From the NCBI GenBank assembly GCA_027624865.1, contig JAQBTT010000001.1, positions 1-53,777 of the forward strand: a stretch of 53,777 nucleotides of DNA, given 5' to 3'. Below the pieces are notes generated by a model. It saw nothing but the letters and a program-made list of their open reading frames with translations. It did not search any database and was not told the origin of the DNA. Positions 15,872-52,570 of this stretch are shown here, piece by piece (position 1 is the first letter of the stretch; every line of letters starts with the position of its first letter). The DNA is from a bacterium (GTDB lineage: Bacteria > Patescibacteriota > Minisyncoccia > Minisyncoccales > UBA10102). The translations under genes were made by a program, and so were the position numbers.

Positions 15872-15919
15872 CATCCTAAGCTAAGCTTAGTTTTGCAAAA
15901 CTAAGCTTAGCTTAGGATG
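15872..15919. repeat. Perfect 48-bp palindrome at a convergent gene junction (likely a bidirectional terminator)
   Basis: catcctaagctaagcttagttttgcaaaactaagcttagcttaggatg is its own reverse complement. Its right arm encodes the prfA C-terminus. Confidence 0.9.
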
Positions 15920-20206: not shown

Positions 20207-20295
20207 ATCAGTACCCTTACGAGGGTACGTTTAGAGAGTTTGATCCTAGCTCAGGATGAACGCTGGCGACGTGGATAAGGCATGCAAGTCGAACG

Positions 20296-20418
20296 TGTCA
20301 GTGTTACGCACTGACCGCAGACACACGCAGACTTGACGCGGAAATACGCAGAAAAATAGTTTCTGCGTGATTCTGCGTTTGTTCTGCGTAGTTCCGCGGC
20401 CAATGCGTAGCATTGGCA
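20296..20418 (+). repeat. 123-nt hairpin-cluster insertion module, copy 1, replacing 16S helix 6 / V1
   Basis: About 85% identical by eye to 31201-31321 in the 23S. The 3' 57 nt match at 55/57. Confidence 0.85.
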
Positions 20419-21929
20419 AGTGGCAAACGAGTTAGTAACACGTGGATACGTACCCTAAAGACGGGCACAACCAGCCGAAAGGTTGGCTAATTCCCGATAG
20501 CCCCCTCTTTCGCTTTTTGTTTCACAAAAAGCTTCAGAGGGCAAGGCCGTAAGGCTTCGCCCTCCGTAGCTCTGTGTGGAACGCAGAGCGAAGGAGGGGT
20601 AAAGAAGCAATTCGCTTTAGGAGCGGTCCGCGGCCTATCAGCTTGTTGGTGAGGTAAAAGCTCACCAAGGCTATGACGGGTAGGGGAGGTGAGAGCCTGT
20701 TCCCCAACGCGGGTACTGAGATACGGACCTGACACCTACGGGTGGCCGCAGTCGAGGATATTGGACAATGGGCGCAAGCCTGATCCAGCGACGTCGCGTG
20801 TGGGATGACGGCCTTCGGGTTGTAAACCACTTTTATAGAGGAAGAAGGCGCATCTCACTGTCGTTCGATGCGAAAGATACTTGTTGATATTTGTTTCTCG
20901 CTTTGCTCGAAACGATACTCGTTGATATTCATTGCAATGAGTATCGCGAGCGTAGCGAGCAAGTATCAATAAATATCTATGAATATTAGCACCGAGCGAG
21001 AGTGAGGTGCGTCTGACGGTACTCTATGAATAAGGGGGTGCTAACTCTGTGCCAGCAGCAGCGGTAATACAGAGCCCCCAAGCGTTATCCGGATTTATTG
21101 GGCGTAAAGCGTCTGTAGCCGGTTTGGCAAGTCTCTTGTTAAATACCAAGGGCTCAACCTTTGGAATGCAAGGGAAACTTTTAGACTAGAGGATGTTAGG
21201 GGCTGATGGAACTCTTAGTGGAGGGGTGGAATCCGTTGATATTAAGAGGAACACCGAAAGCGAAGGCATTCAGCTGGAACAATCCTGACGGTGAGAGACG
21301 AAAGCGTGGGGAGCAAAAAGGATTAGATACCCTTGTAGTCCACGCTGTAAACGATGGATACTAGCTATGTGAAGTGTCGACCCTTCACGTGGCGAAGCTA
21401 ACGCGTTAAGTATCCCGCCTGGGAAGTACGATCGCAAGATTAAAACTCAAAGGAATAGACGGGGGTCCACACAAGCGGTGGATCATGTGGCTTAATTCGT
21501 CAACAAACGAGGAACCTTACCAGGGTTTGACACCTACTGGAAAGCCTCCTGAAAGGGAAGCCTTCTCACAAGGACCAGTAGGCAGGTGTTGCACGGCCGT
21601 CGTCAGCATGTACCTTGAGGCGCTCCGTTAAATCGGGTAACATGCGCAACCCCTATCGCTTGTTTTATATGTCAAGCGAAACTGCCTGAGACAATCAGGA
21701 GGAAGGTGGGGATGACGCCAGGTCCGCGTGGCCCTTTGATATCCTGGGCTGCACACATGATACAATGGAGCCGACAATGGGACGCAATACAGTAATGTGG
21801 AGCAAATCCCTAAACGGCCCCTCAGTTCGGATTGAGGTCTGCAATTCGACCTCATGAAGCCGGAATCGCTAGTAATCGCGTATCAGCTATGGCGCGATGA
21901 ATATGTTCCTGGACCTTGTACTCACCGCC

Positions 21930-22798
21930 AAATAAAATGTGCCCGGCGGTTTACTTCACTAGCAGGTTAAAGTCCTGTCTTTGCAAAAGCAAAGTAGCCA
22001 AAAAATTAGCAGTCCTGGCTCGTAAGAGTCCAGGGTGGAGGGCTTGAGGCAAATAGCAGCCTATGACATAATGAATTTGAACGACTCCTGCGGGCGGTCT
22101 GAAGGAAGTTCAAGAATAATTCGTGCATAAGGATGCTAGGAAATGTGAAATAAATTACCCGGGGAGATCCTAGAAATGAGAGTCTTTTCTGATAATTTCT
22201 AGGAAGTCAGCTAGTGCCATAGTATCTTGCTTGGCAAGAGAAGGGCCTAACCTAAAAAGCATATGCTTTCAAAAGATTACATTGTTGGATTAACCGATGG
22301 GGAGGGGAGTTTTACTGCGTACCTCAGGCCTCCTCGCAAAGAACATGGCTCAAAGAGCTATCGCGTGGAATGTCATTACTATTTGAAGCTTCGAGAAGAT
22401 GACTTAGCCTTGTTAAAAAAGCTAAAGCAATTCTTTAAAGTAGGACTGGTATCATTTCAGAGAGATAGACGATTGAATCATCACGATTGCTATCGGTATG
22501 AAACAACGAATCTAAAGGACATTTGTGAAGTTATCATTCCATTTTTTGATGCAAATCCCTTGCAAGGGAATAAGATGCGAGACTATCGCTTATTCAAGAA
22601 GATTGTAAAAGCAGTAGTAAAGAAAGAGCATCGAACCAATGAAGGATTTTTGAAGATTAAGAAATGGAAAGAAGAAATGCATACTTTTGGGGCTCGCTGA
22701 ATACGGGAAATCCGTATGTTCAGCCTCGATATGGAAAGTCGAGGGCTCCTATTTACTAGGAGCTGGGAACGAGACATTTGACTCAAATGAACTCACTC
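21930..22798 (+). mobile_element. Intervening sequence / intron in the 16S decoding centre (between E. coli C1403 and C1404 equivalents) carrying a LAGLIDADG ORF
   Basis: Exon ttgtactcaccgcc | 869 nt | cgtcaagtc restores the universal CACCGCCCGUCA. The intron class was not established. Confidence 0.75.
22263..22700 (+). CDS. LAGLIDADG homing endonuclease (single-motif, I-CreI-like size)
   Basis: 145 aa with YIVGLTDGEGSF, located inside the 16S intervening sequence. Confidence 0.85.
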   Translation: MLSKDYIVGLTDGEGSFTAYLRPPRKEHGSKSYRVECHYYLKLREDDLALLKKLKQFFKVGLVSFQRDRRLNHHDCYRYETTNLKDICEVIIPFFDANPLQGNKMRDYRLFKKIVKAVVKKEHRTNEGFLKIKKWKEEMHTFGAR

Positions 22799-23101
22799 CG
22801 TCAAGTCAAGCGAGCCGGGAATACCCGAAACTCCACCTCGCGTGGATCTAAGGTAGGCTCGGTGAGAGGGACTAAGTCGTAACAAGGCACCGGTAGGGGA
22901 ACCTGTCGGTGGATCACATCATTTTTGAAAGTGTCGTCCAGATAAGCCCCGCCCTTTCTACGTCGCTCTACTGTCAATCGACGAGTATGGCGATGTGGAA
23001 AGGTATTCTTCGGAAATCATATTTCTTGAGGAAAGAGCGGGGTGATCTGCGGTGTAACTAGAGCCGTTAATTCTAGTTCTAGACATTTATGTTTAGTTTG
23101 T

Positions 23102-23519: not shown

Positions 23520-23616
23520 CCAAAAGACAAGCAGTTGTCTTTTGGGCCCGTGGCTCAGCTGGGTTAAAGACAACTGCTTGTCTTTAACGGGGTTTGAAAC
23601 AACTGCTTGTTTCAAA
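23520..23616 (+). repeat. Three tandem hairpins built on an aagacaa-NNNN-ttgtctt core, plus a 19-nt duplicate of the tRNA-Ala 5' end (23544-23562)
   Basis: ccaaaagacaagcagttgtcttttgg, gttaaagacaactgcttgtctttaac, gtttgaaacaactgcttgtttcaaac. gggcccgtggctcagctgg is identical to 23761-23779. Confidence 0.8.
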
Positions 23617-23720
23617 CGGACATTTTAGCGAACCCTCCGTGGTGAGCGTTAAAAAATGCCCAGGGTATAATGTAGTAAGCTCCTGCGAAGCCGTAAAAAA
23701 CTGCACCGGCTATAATATAG
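23605..23720 (+). repeat. Dispersed repeat family, copy A (core gaaccctccgtggtgagcg plus two tandem tataat-containing units)
   Basis: Near-identical to the reverse complement of 53665-53777. The core is shared with 30625-30699. Confidence 0.85.
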
Positions 23721-28764: not shown

Positions 28765-28828
28765 TTGATACTTCTTTCTGCCCAGCCCTCTTTAAAGAGG
28801 GCTGGGTCAAAGAGATATTTATTCTATA

Positions 28829-30624: not shown

Positions 30625-30699
30625 GGGTCCAAGACAACTACTTGTCTTGGATGGGTGATTTAGTGAACCCTCCGTGGTGAGCGTAAAAAATCACCCAGG
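30625..30699 (+). repeat. Dispersed repeat family, copy B (aagacaa hairpin plus the gaaccctccgtggtgagcg core)
   Basis: ccaagacaactacttgtcttgg followed by tgatttagtgaaccctccgtggtgagcgtaaaaaatcaccc. This is the same architecture as 23591-23660. Confidence 0.8.
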
Positions 30700-30738: not shown

Positions 30739-30971
30739 CAGGAATCAATTGTAATTATAGGCAGGTAGTGGATGCCTTGGGATGTAAAGGCGATGAAGGA
30801 CGTAGCTTAGCTGCGATAAGCCTCGGGGAGCAGTGTAGCATGCTTTGATCCGGGGATTTCCGAATGGGGAAACCTGGTTTATGGAAACATAGATCGTCTG
30901 TCAGCAATGACAGAAGCGAACCCGCTGAAGTGAAACATCTCAGTAAGCGGAGGAAAAGAGAACGTAAGTAT

Positions 30972-31156
30972 CCTTGTGCTTCGCACAAGGAATTCCTAAT
31001 TAACCTAATTCCTAATTAACCTAATCAATAACCAATGTCTTAATACTAATGACCAAAAACTTATAGAGTACTATATTGGTTTTTAGAAATTAGGATCTGG
31101 GATTTCTTTAGAAATTAGAAATTAGATATTAGAAATTTCTCGTGCGAAGCACGAGG
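30972..31156 (+). repeat. 185-nt AT-rich insertion in 23S domain I bounded by inverted GC hairpins (IVS- or MITE-like)
   Basis: ccttgtgcttcgcacaagg (30972-30990) against the reverse complement of ctcgtgcgaagcacgagg (31139-31156) gives 17/19. TAT flanks both ends. The interior is made of stuttered words (aattcctaattaacc x2, ttagaaatta x3). Confidence 0.75.
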
Positions 31157-31200
31157 TATATTCCCTTAGTAGCGGCGAGCGAAATGGGAGGAGCCTAAAC

Positions 31201-31321
31201 TGTCAGTGCTTTGCATTGACCGCAGAAGGACGCGGACTTGACGCGGAACTGCGCGGAAATATTTTCTGCGTGATTCTGCGTTTGGTCTGCGTAGTTCCGC
31301 GGCCAATGCGGAGCATTGGCA
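31201..31321 (+). repeat. 121-nt hairpin-cluster insertion module, copy 2, in 23S domain I
   Basis: Homologous to 20296-20418 in the 16S: tgtcagtg...cattgaccgcag...ttctgcgtgattctgcgtttg.tctgcgtagttccgcggccaatgcg.agcattggca. Confidence 0.85.
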
Positions 31322-33072
31322 GGGTTGTAAGACTATAGCGTCGGGAGTTGTTTTGAAACGTTGCGCGATTTTGGAGATCTCAATAGTGGGGTCCCCGAAA
31401 TTGCGAAGCGATTTTGAAGGAATTTCTGAGGGAGAATATTTAGATAAAGTGGTTAGAAAAACGCCTCTGGAACGGGCGGCCAAAGAGGGTAATAGCCCCG
31501 TATTCGAAAACTGCCTTTATGCTCCTTGCTATTTTTCTTGAGTACCTCGGGACACGAATATCCCGTGGGAAACATCCGGGACTATCCGGAAAGGCTAAAT
31601 ACTTTACATCACCGATAGTGAACGAGTACCGTGAGGGAAAGGTGAAAAGCAGCCCGGTGAGGGCGATGAAATAGAACCTGAAACTATCTTGCCTACAACG
31701 AATCGGAGGGGAGTTTACTCCCTGACGGTGTGCTTTTTGCAGAACGAGCCAACGAGTGTTCCTAACAGCTTTGTCTAAGCGCCTTTGGCGTGCAGGCACA
31801 GCGAAAGCGAGTGTGAATAGCGCGTTTGGCGTCCGCAAGGACGCTATGAGTTGTTGGGAACGACCCGAAGCCAAGCGAGCTTGCCATGAGCAGGGTGAAG
31901 GATGACGAAAGTCGTCTGGAGGCCCGAACCCGTAGATCGTTCAACGTCTTGGGATGACTTGTGGTAAGAAGTGAAAAGCTAATCGAGCTTGGTAATAGCT
32001 GGTTCTCTCCGAAATAGCTTTAGGGCTAGCGTCGCAAAGCAAGTCTTGGAGGTAGAGCTCTGAAAAGAGCGCTCTTGGAGCAATCCAGGCGCTTTTATCA
32101 AACTTCGAATGCCAAGACTCTAGATGCGGCAGTCAGAACGTGGGGGCTAAGCTCCGCGCTCAAAAGGGAAACAGCCCAGATCTTCATCTAAGGTCCCTAA
32201 ATCAAGCTAAGTGCAAAATAAGGAAGTGAGGCTCCAAAGATAGCTAGGAGGTTCGCTTAGAAGCAGCTATCCTTTAAAAATAGCGTAATAGCTTACTAGC
32301 TAAGGAGTTTTGCGCCGCAAATTTATCGGGGCTAAGCTTGGTACCGAAGATAAGGCCCAGCTCTCTTTCAAGAGGGCTGGGGGTAGGAGAGCGTCCTCTT
32401 TGCAATGAAGGTGAATCGTGAGGTTTGCTGGAGCGGAGAGGAGTGAGAATGTTGGCATGAGTAACCACAATGCAAGTGAAATCCTTGCACACCGAAAACC
32501 TAAGGTTTCCTTGGCAATGACAATCACCCAAGGGTTAGGCGGCCCTAAGTGGTGCACCAAATGGTGTATTGCGATGGACAGAAGGTTAATATTCCTTCCC
32601 CTTGTCATATGCTTTTTCAGATGACGGAGTGTAGTAACTCTTGTGAATTATTGGATTTTTGTCCTTGGCGTGAGGGGTAACCCAAGCGCAGAGGCGACTC
32701 GCTGTTATGGCGGGGAGAAGAGTGAGCACGCTTCCCGGAAAAGTTCTGAAAGTTTGAGTATGATGAGTCCGTACCGTAAACCGACACAGGTGGGTTGGTA
32801 TCAATGTACTAAGGTGAACGGGTGAAAGCTCCTGAAGGAACTCGGCAAATTAGTGGTCGTAACTTCGGGATAAGACCTCCCTGTAGCAATACAGGGCGCA
32901 GCAAACGTATTCCTGGCGACTGTTTACCAAAAACACAGGTCCCTGCATAACTCGAAAGAGGAAGTATAGGGGCTGACGCCTGACCAGTGCTGGAGTGTTA
33001 AGCCTGCAGGTGGCTTTGAGCAATCAAAGCTGCTTAGTGGGTGAAGCCCCAGTGAACGTCCGCGGTAACTAT

Positions 33073-33810
33073 AAACTCACGGGTTGTAGTTATAAAATCT
33101 GGCCATATGCGGGAACATCTCGACAAAAATCTTAGACGTACTCGTAAGGAATTCGTCTCCTTGCAGTAACAATCGATCTAAGAGAGAAAATCCGCAGGAA
33201 AGACCATTTGTGAGTCACAAAAAAACATGAGAAGTCAATCATGGGAAAAGCAAATCCCCAGCCACATTGGGTGGTATCTTGCAGGATTTGCAGATGGTGA
33301 AGGAAGCTTCAACATCTCCCTTAAGAGAGATATAGAGTATCGACTCGGTTGGCATATTGAACCAAGTTTCAATGTATCCCAACGAGAAAGAACAATTCTT
33401 GCTTTGTTCAAACAACATCTTGGAGTAGGAACACTTCGTCAACGAAAAGATGGAGTAGTATACTACGAAGTGCGCAATTATCGTGCACTGCAAGATAAAG
33501 TTATTCCTTTCTTTGAGAAATTTACTTTTCTTTCTTCAACAAAAAAGAGAAATTTCTCGCTCTTCCGTAAAATTATTGTTCTTATGAATGAAGGGCAACA
33601 TACAAATGCGGAAGGTTTGAAGAAAATCCTTTTGATTAGAGAACAAATTAATAAAGGTCATGGAAGAACAAGGAAGTATTCATTAGACGATTATTTAGAC
33701 TCACAAGCGGAATCCTCAGAGACTATACGCCAGACCCTGAGAGAGCCGAAAGGCGAATCGAAGGGATGATATAGTCCGATCTCATAGGTGACTATGAGCT
33801 AACATGTATG
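33073..33810 (+). mobile_element. Group I intron at the site equivalent to E. coli 23S U1917 (helix 69 loop), carrying a LAGLIDADG ORF
   Basis: The 5' exon ends in U (gtaactat) and the intron ends in G. The internal guide GUAGUU pairs with exon AACUAU with a U.G at the splice site. The core elements aatctggccatatgcggg and gatatagtcc are present. Joining the exons restores GUAACUAU|AACCGUG, so helix 69 (cgcgg/ccgtg) can form. Confidence 0.75.
33227..33769 (+). CDS. LAGLIDADG homing endonuclease (single-motif)
   Basis: 180 aa with WYLAGFADGEGSF. The ORF 3' end runs into the intron core (its stop overlaps gatatagtcc). Confidence 0.85.
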   Translation: MRSQSWEKQIPSHIGWYLAGFADGEGSFNISLKRDIEYRLGWHIEPSFNVSQRERTILALFKQHLGVGTLRQRKDGVVYYEVRNYRALQDKVIPFFEKFTFLSSTKKRNFSLFRKIIVLMNEGQHTNAEGLKKILLIREQINKGHGRTRKYSLDDYLDSQAESSETIRQTLREPKGESKG

Positions 33811-33824
33811 AACCGTGTTAAAGT

Positions 33825-34097
33825 AGGAAATCTGCTTTAGTAAAATCTGGCTATATGCTGGAAAATCTGAGTATCCGACACTACTTGAAAGAGTGAAAAT
33901 GTGTTCGGTGCAGACAATCAGCAGGAAACCAAAATCATAAAGTGTGATGAGTAGGATCCTCAGAGACTATACGCCAGACCCCGACATTACGTCGGGGAAG
34001 ATATAGTCCGAACTTCATGGCGACATGAAGAGTGAAGTAGAAATACTTCACCGCCATGCCTCTTTTTATGAGGCTTGGTCTGAAAGTAACATGATTG
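33825..34097 (+). mobile_element. ORF-less group I intron at the site equivalent to E. coli 23S U1931
   Basis: The 5' exon ends in U (ttaaagt) and the intron ends in G (atgattg). The guide GCUUUA pairs with exon UAAAGU with a U.G wobble. The core aatctggctatatgctgg, cagacaatcagcagg and gatatagtcc is homologous to the neighbouring intron. Joining the exons gives AAAGU|AGCGUAAUCCCUUG. Confidence 0.7.
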
Positions 34098-34420
34098 AGC
34101 GTAATCCCTTGCCTGGTAAGTTCAGGCCTGCATGAAAGGCGTAACGACTGGGAAACTGTCTCCAGGAGCTGCCCGGTGAAAATGCAATACCGGTAAAGAT
34201 GCCGGTTACCTGCGGCTAGACGGAAAGACCCCGGGAGCTTTACTATAGCTTCTTATTGTCTTGTCATTTTGCCTGCGTAGAATAGCAGGGAGGCTTTGAT
34301 GCCCGTTTTTCGGAATGGGTGGAGCCAACAGTGAAATACCTGTCTGGTAGGAAGATAAGACTAATTCCGCGTATGCGGATGACAGTGGGAGGTGGGTAGT
34401 TTTAGTGGGGCGCTAGCCTT

Positions 34421-34729
34421 AACACAATGGGGCCATCTAAGAGTAATTTTAGATGCCAAACTCGACTAATATGCTGGAATATCTGGAGTACTTAAGGAGT
34501 AATCCAACAAGTGTGGCCGTAAGATACGGCTACCAGACAATCAGCAGGGAAGGTATAATAGAGGTACCACCCTCAACGACTACACGTCGAGCCCGAACTA
34601 TTGAAAGAATGAATGTTCGGTGGTGATATAGTCTGAACTCTATGGCGACATAGAGACTCGGTAATGTTCACACATTGCGCCAGTGAAACAATCCGAGACT
34701 TAAGTGCTTACTTAAGGTTAACAGAATTG
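34421..34729 (+). mobile_element. ORF-less group I intron just 3' of the P-loop (about E. coli 2257-2263). Boundaries are uncertain by up to ~8 nt.
   Basis: It interrupts ggggcg..|..cctaaagagtagcggagg. It shares the core ctcgactaatatgctgg, cagacaatcagcaggg and gatatagtct with the other introns. An alternative boundary pair is 34415/34724. Confidence 0.6.
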
Positions 34730-35060
34730 CCTAAAGAGTAGCGGAGGCGTTTAAAGGTCAGCTAAGTCCGGATGGAAATCGGACCGGTCGTGTAAAGGCG
34801 CAAGCTGGCTTTACTGCGAGACGGATATGTCGAGCAGTTGCGAAAGCAGAACTTAGTGAACCGATACGCCGTAATAGAAGGCGTAAAGATCATCAACCAA
34901 AAGTTACCCCGGGGATAACAGGCTGGTAGTGCCCACGAGTCCATATCTACGGCACTGTTCGGCACCTCGATGTCGGCTCACCTTATCCTGGGGGTGGAGA
35001 AGCTCCCAAGGGTTTGGCTGTTCGCCAATTAAAAAGGTACGCGAGCTGGGTTCAGACCGT

Positions 35061-35328
35061 CAATAATGAACCATGACATTGAGTAACACACGGCGGCTTT
35101 CATAAGTAATTATGATCGCAAACCGACTCATATCGGTGGATTCCTATAAACTTTTTCGCAACCTGGAAGAGTAGGAGAATACCGAGGCAACCTGTATGTA
35201 TATTATATATGGGAGCTGTAGAGACTTGATCTATGATCAGACGGGAGAGAATATTTTTCCGTAACACGTCGGCATCCTTAGTAAAGGATGGTGGTATAGT
35301 CCAAACATTTGGTAACAAGTGAGTATTG
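35061..35328 (+). mobile_element. ORF-less group I intron at the site equivalent to E. coli 23S U2593 (peptidyl-transferase centre)
   Basis: Exon gggttcagaccgt | 268 nt ending in G | cgtgagacaggt restores GAACGU|CGUGAGACAG. The core aaaccgactcatatcggtgg and ggtatagtcc is present. Confidence 0.7.
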
Positions 35329-35619
35329 CGTGAGACAGGTTGGTCCCTATCTACCGCAGGCGTCAAGTCTTGAGGAGATTCGTCTCTAGTACGAGAGGAC
35401 CGAGATGAACTAACCTCTGGTGTACCAGTTGTCCTGCCAAGGGCATCGCTGGGTAGCTATGTTGGGAAGGGATAAGCGCTGAAAGCATATAAGCGCGAAG
35501 CCTACTCCAAGATGAGGACTTTAAGATCCCTCGAAGATCACGAGGTTGATAGGCTCTAGGTGAAAGCCCGGTGACGGGTTCAGCCGAGGAGTACTAATGA
35601 TCTACATACGATTATTTCT

Positions 35620-45719: not shown

Positions 45720-47002
45720 TACGACCAATTTCTATCTCACTTTCTCCCAACACAGAGTCAGATGATGTCTTTGCGGCTTTGCGTTTGTACGTGCAACCTT
45801 GGCGCTGGAGAAGGGGAGAGCATATAGAGAAATTTGAAGAAGAGTTTAAAGAATACATGGGAGTTCCCCATGCAATCTCTTTTAATAGTGGAAGGTCTGC
45901 TTTTCTTGCGCTTTTAAAGTCCCTTGATTTACATAAGGATGATGAAGTTTTAATTCAGGCATTTACCTGTAATGCGGTGAGTAATCCTGTGTTGTGGGCT
46001 GGGCTTACGCCTGTATACGTGGATTGCCAAGAGGACTATAACATGTCTGCTGGAGACCTTGAGCGAAAGATTACTCCACGCTCTCGGGTTGTTGTGGTGC
46101 AACATACCTTTGGCTTGCCAGCAGACATGGATAAGATCATGGAGGTTTGCCAAAGACACAACCTTGTTTTGTTGGAAGACTGCGCCCATGCCTTGGGAGC
46201 AACTTATAAAGGAAAGAAGGTTGGAACTTTTGGGAAGGCGGCTTTTTTCAGCTTTTCTCGAGATAAAGTTATTTCCTCGGTGTATGGGGGTATGGCAACT
46301 ACCAATGATGAGGTATTAGCTGGCAAGCTCCGGGAGTTTCAAAGGGAAGCTGGCTACCCCTCTTACCTTTGGATAAAGCAGCAGGTTTTGCATCCATGGC
46401 TTATGAACTTGCTTATTCTTCCTACCTACCGCGTCTTTGGCAGATATCTTTTAGTTGCGGCTCAATGGATTCATATGCTTTCCAAAGCAGTTCACAAAAA
46501 AGAAAAAAGGGGTCAGAAACCCAGATACTTTCCCAAGGCTCTTCCTAATGTTTTGGCGATTTTAGCAAGCCGCCAATTTAAAAAATTAGAACGTTTTAAC
46601 TCCCACCGCAGGCATATTGCCGCCCTATATGAAAAAGCATTGCCTGGTTTGGGCGAAAACGGTTTTAGCCCAAGCCCAGCCTCTTTTTCTGTTGTAAGAT
46701 CAGAAAGAGAATCTGTTTATCTTAGATTTGTCCTGCGTCATCCTCGTGCTCACGAGATTATCCGCAAGGCGTGGAGAGCAAATATCCTACTGGGGGATTG
46801 GTACACAACCGTAGTAGCTCCACATGATACAGAGATTGATAAGATGGGATATGAATGGGGGAGTTGCCCCAAGGCAGAGGAGCTCTCGCGCATCACGCTT
46901 AATCTTCCTACGCATATTCGTATTTCAGAAAAGGAAGTAAACACCATCATTGTTTTTCTAAAAAATCAAGATCCTAAGCTAAGCTTAGGTGTGGATAACT
47001 AA
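45716..47002 (+). CDS. DegT/DnrJ/EryC1/StrS-family PLP-dependent aminotransferase
   Basis: FTCNAV..VDC, QHTFG..D and FSFSRDKVISS (PLP-Lys motif). Confidence 0.75.
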   Translation: MIRPISISLSPNTESDDVFAALRLYVQPWRWRRGEHIEKFEEEFKEYMGVPHAISFNSGRSAFLALLKSLDLHKDDEVLIQAFTCNAVSNPVLWAGLTPVYVDCQEDYNMSAGDLERKITPRSRVVVVQHTFGLPADMDKIMEVCQRHNLVLLEDCAHALGATYKGKKVGTFGKAAFFSFSRDKVISSVYGGMATTNDEVLAGKLREFQREAGYPSYLWIKQQVLHPWLMNLLILPTYRVFGRYLLVAAQWIHMLSKAVHKKEKRGQKPRYFPKALPNVLAILASRQFKKLERFNSHRRHIAALYEKALPGLGENGFSPSPASFSVVRSERESVYLRFVLRHPRAHEIIRKAWRANILLGDWYTTVVAPHDTEIDKMGYEWGSCPKAEELSRITLNLPTHIRISEKEVNTIIVFLKNQDPKLSLGVDN

Positions 47003-47014
47003 GCTTAGCTTAGG
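46973..47014. repeat. Second copy of the cctaagctaagcttag palindrome arm pair (16-bp arms, 10-nt loop)
   Basis: cctaagctaagcttag / ctaagcttagcttagg are the same arms as in 15872-15919. The hairpin contains the DegT stop codon. Confidence 0.85.
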
Positions 47015-52465: not shown

Positions 52466-52554
52466 CCGCTGATATGTGCCGATTTTGCTGATTGATGCCG
52501 ATTCACTATATCTGGTATCAGCGTAAATCAGCCAGTATCAGCATTAATTAGCGG
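52466..52554. repeat. Stuttered-word palindrome (gctgat/gccgatt words against atcagc words)
   Basis: accgct...agcggt outer pair. gctgat x2 in the left arm and atcagc x3 in the right arm. Confidence 0.65.
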
Positions 52555-52570
52555 TGAGCGATAGCGAACA

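Follow-up and report, generated by a model that had tools for sequence, protein, structure and literature searches.

Small mobile hairpins are familiar from organelles, among them the double-hairpin elements of Allomyces mitochondrial DNA (mtDNA), the GC clusters of yeast mtDNA and the palindromic repeats of Volvox organelles. In bacteria, Rickettsia felis carries 728 Rickettsia palindromic elements (RPEs), of which 85 lie in open reading frames (ORFs) and three in RNA genes (PMC1166351), and pairs of repetitive extragenic palindromic (REP) sequences make up REPINs, in which two inverted small palindromes form one long hairpin (PMC3337134, PMC3116915). For bacteria of the candidate phyla radiation (CPR), passages of one account treat rRNA inserts chiefly as introns of group I or II that come with homing endonucleases, cite reports of transcript removal for intron-like and ORF-bearing inserts, and call inserts of <200 bp without ORFs or intron features, at the tops of stem-loops, 'uncharacterised' (PMC11270868); a passage of another notes, for the RNase P RNAs of CPR bacteria, 'large extensions of helices' that made manual refolding necessary (PMC8172020). 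Here, we describe an insertion module found once in the 23S and once in the 16S rRNA gene of contig JAQBTT010000001.1 (GenBank assembly GCA_027624865.1; the whole 53,777-nt stretch that was analysed is called the window), and show that the two copies belong to a previously undescribed family of palindromic, apparently mobile hairpin elements at stable-RNA helix tips in many CPR/Patescibacteria.

A module shared by the two rRNA genes had been proposed in a first-pass annotation of this DNA, and it is real: the 23S and 16S copies (coordinates in Table 1) are identical at 106 of 123 aligned columns, and both stand at variable helix tips. The 17 columns that differ fall in the 5' half (11), the apex (four) and the 3' half (two). 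The 23S copy reads tGTCAGTGCTTTGCATTGAC-CGCAGAAGGACGCGGACTTGACGCGGAACTGCGCGGAA-ATATT-TTCTGCGTGATTCTGCGTTTGGTCTGCGTAGTTCCGCG-GCCAATGCGGAGCATTGGCa, is flanked by ...GGAGGAGCCTAAAC on its 5' side and GGGTTGTAAGAC on its 3' side, with AGTAGCGGCGAGCGAA just upstream, and appears as 106 extra nt at a hairpin tip in the Rfam large-subunit (LSU) alignment (model positions ~274-296); in a BLAST comparison with E. coli 23S rRNA it falls in the unaligned gap from E. coli position 268 to 369. We take this site to be helix 15, the site of eukaryotic expansion segment ES5, with the numbering provisional. The 16S copy accounts for 102 extra nt at a 16S helix tip (Rfam alignment), presumably that of h6 in V1; this and other helix names are our own provisional assignments. 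Module-derived 21- and 25-mers occur exactly twice in the window, where shuffled sequence gives an expectation of ~0.01 or less. With a covariance model of the family (R1), the 23S copy scores 121.3 bits on the + strand and 109.2 on the - strand, and the 16S copy 125.4 bits; everything else in the window scores at most 27 bits by this model, so there is no third strong copy.

Both copies are predicted to fold very stably, at -84.6 kcal/mol for the 23S copy (z -11.5 against shuffled sequence) and -74.7 kcal/mol for the 16S copy (z -10.2), and both are better paired than the average family member. The first-pass annotation had drawn the module as a row of small hairpins, a picture of which one half stands: the end hairpins are conserved in the family, but the minimum-energy fold of either window copy is one long, nearly continuous rod, and the small end hairpins are an alternative pairing of the rod's own bases.

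Relatives were collected with two patterns, and a collected locus is labelled L plus a number (for example, L057). Public metagenome contigs were scanned with a 3'-arm pattern derived from the window (TTCTGCG N2-5 TTCYGCG N3-7 TCYGCG NNN TTCYGCG), yielding at least 120 loci against well below 1 expected by chance; among the matches listed, some are plain 10-nt tandem repeats and many have the complete module architecture. The hairpin-A pattern TGTCARTGYNNNRCAYTGACCGCRGA was scanned, blind to location, on one genome per bacterial species and gave 23 loci, every one in a metagenome-assembled genome (MAG) of CPR/Patescibacteria. The hosts are Candidatus Vogelbacteria (one genome, three contigs), Harrisonbacteria, Yanofskybacteria, Jorgensenbacteria, Zambryskiibacteriota, Paceibacter and several MAGs labelled Saccharibacteria. 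At a threshold of at least 100 bits with R1, the family comprises about 40 distinct elements, from independent metagenome contigs and Parcubacteria-type MAGs; many of the copies that related genomes have at one site do not count as separate events. The 16S core of the window is 74-84% identical to those of element-bearing hosts, with its best match among the named loci in a Jorgensenbacteria MAG (76-84%), and the content of the window (introns, LAGLIDADG ORFs, protein genes between 16S and 23S) is typical of CPR bacteria (compare passages of PMC8172020 and PMC11270868). The strict 38-nt 3'-arm pattern had no match in the one-genome-per-species contigs, and the window species, or its rRNA contig, is apparently not represented in that set. 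Rfam holds no family for the element, giving only sub-threshold matches to miRNA-precursor-like hairpins even in a permissive scan, and blastn found no match in plasmids and phages. In IMG/VR viral contigs the hairpin-A pattern had no match, and a central-motif pattern matched four contigs, two of which are the plain tandem-repeat contigs L093 and L104.

The plan of the element was read from an alignment (A2) of 35 sense-oriented members. It starts with T and hairpin A (GTCAGTGC-nnn-GCACTGAC), continues with four CGCRGAA units, an apex of 2-42 nt and four TTCYGCG units, and closes with hairpin B (GCCAATGC-nnn-GCATTGGC) and A; hairpins A and B have 8 bp each, the units may also be written ACGCRGA (5' arm) and TCYGCGT (3' arm), and whole elements measure ~115-160 nt. 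The unit starts are spaced 10-11-10 in 32 of 34 elements for the 5' arm and in 27 of 34 for the 3' arm. While the six-base cores CGCRGA/UCYGCG pair invariantly, the spacers of 3-4 nt between units are mostly unpaired family-wide, which leaves regular 3x3, 4x4 and 3x3 internal loops every 6-7 bp. At base pair four of the outermost unit, 17 of the 35 members have A.C, 11 have G.U, five have A-U and two have G-C; this is an exchange between two isosteric wobble pairs in which Watson-Crick pairs are avoided (28/35 wobble-type, Fisher p = 5e-4).

For the ends of the element, two kinds of pairing are seen. Across the 35 members, local pairing holds in 100% of cells for hairpin A and in 98.6% for hairpin B, with compensatory double changes at six pairs, two in hairpin A and four in hairpin B (for example, G-C to A-U in hairpin A where hairpin B goes from A-U to C-G), and the RNAalifold consensus is a cloverleaf with local end hairpins. 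In the extended rod, where A pairs with B, these compensatory changes disrupt pairing, a C.A or A.C mismatch is conserved at each of two positions (in 31-32 of the 35 members), and G.U pairs are conserved at two others. The rod is ~5 kcal/mol more stable than the local hairpins in 34 of 35 members (means of -75.9 vs -70.6 kcal/mol), and the three A-loop bases are complementary to the B-loop bases in 34, 31 and 35 of the 35 members, and up to six types of pair occur there. Each end stays complementary to itself and A stays complementary to B, and the element therefore has two conserved, competing folds. Two base pairs consistently distinguish hairpin A from hairpin B, and these conserved differences, together with the wobble exchange, argue for selection. 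The covariation is read as that of a folded single strand, be it RNA or DNA, because template switching at the DNA level can also maintain the complementarity of a palindrome. Kissing of the A and B loops in the cloverleaf was considered and rejected as sterically implausible for 3-nt loops on opposite arms of a perfect four-way junction; the extended rod, or symmetry at the DNA level, accounts better for the covariation of the loops. The overall tally of G.U against A.C pairs (230 vs 175, p = 0.007) was rejected as a proof of sense-strand RNA selection, being modest and including four fixed positions per element.

These results bear on two differences between the window copies that the first-pass annotation had taken to be compensatory. 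One, cactgac versus cattgac, is a one-sided change of C to T that turns a G-C pair into G.U; the other, gcgtagc versus gcggagc, falls in a loop and not in a hairpin stem, where it preserves the pairing between the loops of hairpins A and B (TAC/GTA vs TTT/GGA). The selection on RNA structure that they had been taken to suggest has family-level signs of a folded single strand in its favour, but palindrome pairing alone does not prove it, because DNA-level correction of quasi-palindromes could yield the same pattern. The evidence for a folded single strand is stronger at the level of the family, in the compensated end hairpins, the G.U/A.C exchange and the strict sense orientation.

Loci were mapped by BLAST on E. 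coli rRNA, with Rfam and with model R1. All 23 loci of the location-blind scan lie in 16S rRNA, in 23S rRNA or its leader, or in RNase P RNA, and all R1 matches of at least 100 bits are inside stable-RNA genes or their leaders or trailer. In 16S rRNA, canonical copies are found at h6 (the window and ten other independent loci, each from another assembly) and near E. coli position 180. In 23S rRNA there are at least eight sites, among them the one near E. coli position 270 (the window, L057, L078 and L132, with three further loci, L022, L133 and L142, that have the same central domain there and different ends) and others at ~227-232, 540-668, 1105-1244, 1708-1770, ~2400 and 2765-2815. Further canonical copies lie in the 23S leaders of L122, L130 and L147 and in one 23S trailer (L088). 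One RNase P RNA host (L030) was recognised at the Rfam threshold with 118 bits, and six further loci match RF00010 with E-values of 3e-24 to 3e-6, the strand of the match being that of the element. RNase P RNA has at least three insertion points: immediately 5' of the GAGGAAAGUCCG block, after a GGGUAACGCCC hairpin and immediately 5' of the ACAGAAnnCGGCUUA block. The module is thus not private to the rRNA pair in which it was first noticed, since the family also occupies other 23S sites, pre-rRNA leaders and RNase P RNA.

Orientation is uniform. The sense strand of the host scores higher in 40 of 40 elements (those of at least 100 bits with R1), by ~5-20 bits (p = 2e-12, or p = 6e-5 when the test is made on ~15 distinct sites instead). 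The element always takes the whole helix tip, as at the 23S site, where the flanks are ...AAAC on the 5' side and GGGTTGT on the 3' side, and its paired ends stand in place of the native stem in Rfam alignments. The same 23S tip is a plain short hairpin, an empty site, in L032 and L130. At this tip, L021, L047 and L122 have periodic hairpins of other units of ~8-10 nt (CTGGA/CTAGA, ATTCAAGA, TACGAA), and CPR bacteria seem in general to have periodic palindromes at the tips of rRNA helices, with no tie to any one motif.

Several observations speak of movement. A complete element sits at the exact apex of another in L057 (23S), L095 (16S) and L122 (23S). Among 35 members, the 16S and 23S copies of the window are each other's best match (0.89 arm identity), with foreign best matches at 0.84-0.87 and same-site copies elsewhere averaging 0.81. 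In the Vogelbacteria genome, the RNase P copy is 0.89-0.95 identical to two 23S copies and has a common apex with them (GAATTCGTATGAATT), and in the CAYZNS MAG the copies within the genome are again nearest relatives (0.89). Three genomes thus have closest relatives at different sites, in two of the three in different genes, and this likeness means recent spread between genes, or gene conversion. Copies from foreign genomes are 83-87% identical to those of the window, compared with 74-84% for the 16S cores of the hosts; by these identities, the element is at least as conserved as the host 16S core.

The central domain also has relatives outside stable-RNA genes. Elements that share the 4+4 central repeats and have other ends were found several times in spacers and elsewhere in frame in protein genes, those of UvrA, LepA (three contigs) and TsaD, where they add ~35-50 residues at inter-domain linkers and where some have their own, different end hairpins (Table 1). 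The insertion points in LepA are the linker after the G domain (two contigs) and the boundary between domains II and III (the third). In the window, a distant relative of the central domain stands between the genes for Hsp70 and DnaJ; its units (CGCTGAT, TGCCGAT ... ATCAGCG, ATCAGCC) score weakly with R1 (26.5 bits, E about 8e-4), and its predicted fold has -38.4 kcal/mol (z -3.8).

We consider it probable that the family is a non-autonomous palindromic mobile element of ~115-160 nt that has spread within and between CPR (Parcubacteria-type) genomes. At the DNA level, such an element would enter or replace the loops of hairpins, probably in the form of a folded single strand, and its repeated units and two different end hairpins would probably be recognised by an enzyme encoded elsewhere, as in the systems of REP/REPIN and REP-associated tyrosine transposases (RAYTs) or in loop-targeting insertion sequences (IS). 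IS1397 and REP-targeting elements of the IS110 family are precedents for insertion into the loops of palindromes. If insertion is strand-specific and stable-RNA genes are co-oriented with replication, the sense-only orientation would follow from the two; in the window, GC skew is positive throughout and nearly all genes are on the + strand. Once transcribed, the element would fold on itself, its paired ends replacing the native stem, so that it would stand out from a helix on the surface and leave the ribosome or RNase P undisturbed. It may be tolerated as a self-contained structure that prolongs the host helix outwards, at sites known to accept intervening sequences (IVSs) or expansion segments. 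Afterwards it might either be retained as an expansion or be cut out by RNase III like a classical IVS; the several copies in one RNase P RNA and the loop-rich consensus lean to retention, and the IVS sites and leader copies are neutral or lean to processing. The 16S and 23S copies of the window would then be paralogues from such spread, or copies kept alike by gene conversion.

Literature searches for palindromic elements, repetitive elements and miniature inverted-repeat transposable elements (MITEs) of CPR/Patescibacteria brought up no paper that treats palindromes or repeats in CPR rRNA genes, and no published description of the family, its architecture, its range over 16S, 23S and RNase P RNA or its orientation rule was found. 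The short CPR rRNA inserts and the RNase P helix extensions mentioned above are the same objects as the element, viewed from the side of the host; the passages concerned (in PMC11270868 and PMC8172020) speak of no common family, architecture, joint presence in rRNA and RNase P RNA, orientation rule or relatives in protein genes. Like RPEs, the element, taken together with its relatives, is a palindromic repeat of bacteria with reduced genomes that has entered non-coding DNA, RNA genes and, in frame, ORFs, a likeness of behaviour only. It differs from them in its CPR host, its two end hairpins with 4+4 units and its single orientation, and in having one subfamily confined to stable-RNA genes, whereas RNA-gene copies are a rare minority among RPEs. 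Like REPINs, it is non-autonomous, has signs of replication within the genome and is built of two 8-bp palindromes, A and B, that pair into a long hairpin, loops included. Unlike REPINs, which are extragenic, all canonical copies lie within RNA genes or their leaders, the feet of the hairpins (T/GTCAG and GCG/GCCAA) have no GTAG or CGTC, and the spacer is an ordered 4+4 repeat array; among the window ORFs scanned with Pfam there is no gene for a RAYT (Y1 HUH transposase). With MITEs of DDE transposons the element shares terminal inverted repeats (TGTCAGTGC... / ...GCATTGGCA, termini TG...CA), though it lacks their target-site duplication. The resemblance to IVSs lies in an extra stem-loop that replaces the tip of a variable rRNA helix, is sporadic among lineages and is thought transferable; here, in contrast, one sequence family is present at many 16S and 23S sites, in leaders and in RNase P RNA, with fixed orientation and nested copies. 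The mobile hairpins of organelles are likewise small palindromic or multi-hairpin elements that have spread in compact genomes whose rRNA genes tolerate them in variable regions, but they are organellar, unrelated in sequence and free of a periodic 4+4 array.

Several points weigh against a mobile element. The mobilising agent is one that we purely infer: no transposase, RAYT or RNase III (rnc) gene is among the window ORFs scanned with Pfam. There is also no target-site duplication, as ~40 copies have no direct repeat in their flanks, which are the two strands of the host helix or, in nested copies, of the outer element. The likeness of copies within a genome can stem from gene conversion and not transposition. 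All copy counts come from pattern-seeded searches, and the metagenome total (at least 120) is a lower bound. With regard to the fate of the transcript, the central part is not the long perfect duplex that RNase III prefers, because the spacers are unpaired in most members. Two further points, that the niche in stable-RNA genes alone and the strict sense orientation could equally mean a role at the RNA level, and that the invariant four-unit array with conserved wobble positions looks like a binding platform, lead to a different explanation.

According to that explanation, the element is a functional RNA domain, a conserved rod or cloverleaf whose four periodic ACGCRGA/UCYGCGU helices, with their conserved wobble pairs, bind a trans-acting protein and which has been grafted onto all stable ribonucleoproteins for assembly, tethering or regulation. 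The number and spacing of the units are indeed invariant, the cores are invariant with G.U/A.C exchange, and the difference between end hairpins A and B is conserved; the canonical subfamily occurs only in stable-RNA genes and only in sense orientation, and across deep CPR lineages it is conserved as well as the 16S core or better. A domain working in mature RNAs is hard to reconcile with copies in pre-rRNA leaders and trailers (L122, L130, L147, L088), which are discarded. Its sites and copy numbers also vary by genome, many CPR rRNAs have other periodic hairpins or plain ones at the same places, and there are nested copies and relatives in protein genes and spacers; all these traits, the leader and trailer copies included, are typical of parasitic repeats. 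We therefore hold this explanation to be unlikely, though it is the one that fares best among those set against a mobile element.

A classical IVS, which would be excised by RNase III without religation and leave fragmented rRNA, with similarity between sites owed to horizontal transfer and recombination, seems a doubtful account of the whole family. The helix-tip sites do include regions that passages of Tsurumaki et al. (PMC11270868) equate with known IVS sites (E. coli positions 134-178, 540-668 and 1112-1244), short ORF-less CPR rRNA inserts are guessed there to be IVSs, and both window copies form a long, stable stem-loop. RNase P RNAs of ~270-530 nt, however, contain two or three copies each (L143, L145), and unligated cuts would leave the ribozyme in three or four pieces; the consensus is interrupted by 3x3 and 4x4 internal loops every 6-7 bp; and spread between non-homologous sites, nesting and relatives in protein genes go unexplained. 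Excision of this kind is compatible with the mobile element as its last step and is not a true alternative to it.

A dual life is similarly doubtful. The family would be a module specific to RNA genes: on the DNA a strand-specific, loop-targeting mobile element known by its two different end hairpins, and in RNA a conserved, switchable rod or cloverleaf whose four wobble-bearing helices, one helical turn apart, recruit a common protein. Many rRNA helices and ribosomal proteins have been lost in CPR bacteria; if this reading were true, a transposable hairpin domesticated by them would serve as a common handle on the ribosome, pre-rRNA and RNase P.

Growth in place, by slippage or inverted duplication of a ~10-nt unit at each tip with convergent likeness between sites, is conceivable as a general process, given CPR helix tips with quite different units (TACGAA, CTGGA/CTAGA, ATTCAAGA, CCTAATT), but is very improbable for this family: identity of 80-95% over 115 nt or more at unrelated sites takes in the non-repetitive end hairpins and, within a genome, also spacers and apex, and the number of units does not vary from four. 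An assembly chimera or collapse, in which a module truly present in one rRNA gene was copied to the other by the assembler, is very unlikely, as the first-pass annotation had suggested: ~120-nt repeats at two loci can confuse short-read assemblers and both available assemblies stem from one sample, but the copies differ at 17 columns, each has its correct gene on both flanks and the exact native helix tip, 10 other loci from unrelated studies have an element at the identical 16S site, as do L057, L078 and L132 at the identical 23S site, and in the second assembly (ENA) the 23S copy (identical) and the 16S copy (1 mismatch in 12.5 kb) lie on separate scaffolds that end elsewhere, within the 16S body.

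Three other identities were tried and rejected. For a group I or II intron, Rfam calls group I elsewhere in this 23S gene (33799-34030, 34410-34655) and none at the element. An archaeal-type intron would have a bulge-helix-bulge at the exon-intron junctions (two bulges of 3 nt with a 4-bp helix between them), a motif found in neither predicted fold, where a flush U-A pair closes the element and helices continue across the junctions. A self-cleaving ribozyme, or a tRNA-like cloverleaf processed by RNase P or RNase Z, had no match in Rfam.

Table 1. Features of the window, with in-frame relatives from other loci (window positions unless a locus is given)
Feature	Position	Strand	Description
23S copy	31201..31321	+	121 nt, termini T...A; replaces 23S hairpin tip between ...CCTAAAC and GGGTTGT
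End hairpin A (23S copy)	31202..31220	+	GTCAGTGC-TTT-GCATTGAC; alignment A2 columns 2-20
5' arm (23S copy)	31221..31258	+	Four CGCRGAA units, starts 31221, 31231, 31242, 31252 (spacing 10-11-10)
Apex loop ATATT (23S copy)	31259..31263	+	Variable part of the family, 2-42 nt elsewhere; nesting point of other elements
3' arm (23S copy)	31264..31301	+	Four TTCYGCG units, starts 31264, 31274, 31285, 31295
End hairpin B (23S copy)	31302..31320	+	GCCAATGC-GGA-GCATTGGC; loop complementary to hairpin A loop; alignment A2 columns 140-158
16S copy	20296..20418	+	123 nt; between GTCGAACG and AGTGGCAAACG; tip of presumed helix h6 (V1)
Host 23S rRNA gene	30745..35617	+	4873 nt; Rfam RF02541, 2052 bits; also contains two group I introns and other inserts
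Host 16S rRNA gene	20228..22923	+	RF00177 match stops at 21961; true 3' end near 22923
Second 23S insert, same architectural class	30972..31156	+	197 extra nt (LSU model positions 224-232); predicted fold at -57.2 kcal/mol (z -5.5)
16S insert near E. coli position 455	20848..21012	+	154 nt; ends GCGCATCTCAC... / ...GTGAGGTGCGTC match 'type-2' ends
Distant central-domain relative	52466..52558	+	Intergenic dnaK/dnaJ hairpin; 4+4 units YGCYGAT/ATCAGCR, ~10-nt spacing, no end hairpins
In-frame CGCRGAA/TTCYGCG elements	L082 303-448, L016 515-641, L113 560-712, L120 1429-1540, L117 2453-2565		In genes for UvrA, LepA, TsaD

The two rRNA genes of the window contain other inserts. The second 23S insert has end hairpins CTTGTGC-TTC-GCACAAG and CTCGTGC-GAA-GCACGAG with complementary loops, and AT-rich periodic arms (CCTAATT / AATTAGG) between them; similar AT-rich hairpins of CTAAT repeats were seen in the 23S of L122/L127 and L142. 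The 16S insert near position 455 starts with GCGCATCTCACTGTCGTTCGATGCG and finishes with GCACCGAGCGAGAGTGAGGTGCGTC, and the same kind of ends flanks the CGCRGAA central domain in L022, L059, L069, L133 and L142, because of which end modules and central repeat modules seem to combine. BLAST aligns E. coli 16S positions 1492-1541 at 22874-22923, beyond a 944-nt insert near position 1400 (21962-22923) that has a LAGLIDADG_1 ORF (22263-22700, 145 aa, E 5e-20) and no Rfam intron call; for the ~1400 site, passages of Tsurumaki et al. (PMC11270868) describe group-II-intron-like inserts with LAGLIDADG genes in CPR bacteria. The large inserts of the 23S gene (33075-34097, 34300-34729 and 35062-35328) are near E. 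coli positions 1919-1932, 2134-2263 and 2594, with the group I introns at 33799-34030 and 34410-34655 and a second LAGLIDADG_1 ORF at 33227-33769.

Further repeats were noticed in the window and in the collected loci. Between the tRNA-Ile and tRNA-Ala genes, a small hairpin pair with ~45 nt (23561-23664) is repeated at 75% identity just upstream of the 23S gene (30625-30699), so that the 23S leader looks, by its sequence, like a duplicated piece of the 16S-side spacer. Between these two repeats are tRNA-Ala and nine protein genes, including a two-component system, a FIST protein, a nickel superoxide dismutase (Ni-SOD) and an MscS-like channel, because of which the rRNA genes are unlinked. A 36-nt hairpin (GCCCAGCCCTCTTTAAAGAGGGCTGGG...) upstream of the Ni-SOD gene (28780-28815) has an 83% identical counterpart inside the 23S gene (32355-32390). 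Two near-identical, perfect 44-nt palindromes (CCTAAGCTAAGCTTAG...CTAAGCTTAGCTTAGG) at gene ends (15873-15916 and 46971-47014) may be terminator-like repeats. A separate repeat, TTCTGCGGnTTTTCTGCGTATTCTGCGCAATTCTGCGGGAAATA paired with its inverse TTTCCCGCAGAATTGCGCAGAA, was seen in L013, L017, L027, L037, L054, L077, L087 and L089, and lies mostly between or at the ends of open frames in the three for which ORF maps were drawn (L013, L037, L054).

The family gives a common identity, that of one conserved and apparently mobile element with a definable architecture and a covariance model, to a good share of the short ORF-less CPR rRNA inserts and RNase P helix extensions. It explains misplaced gene ends or sub-threshold scores of standard rRNA and RNase P models in CPR genomes, and a shared repeat of ~120 nt can break or confuse the assembly of rRNA loci. 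The element can also serve as a marker for tracing exchange among CPR lineages. Its sense-only orientation, confinement to stable-RNA genes, nesting at hairpin tips and conserved wobble pairs make it a tractable case of a selfish element that finds safe harbours in essential structured RNAs, and it allows one to ask whether bacteria build rRNA 'expansion segments' from mobile DNA.

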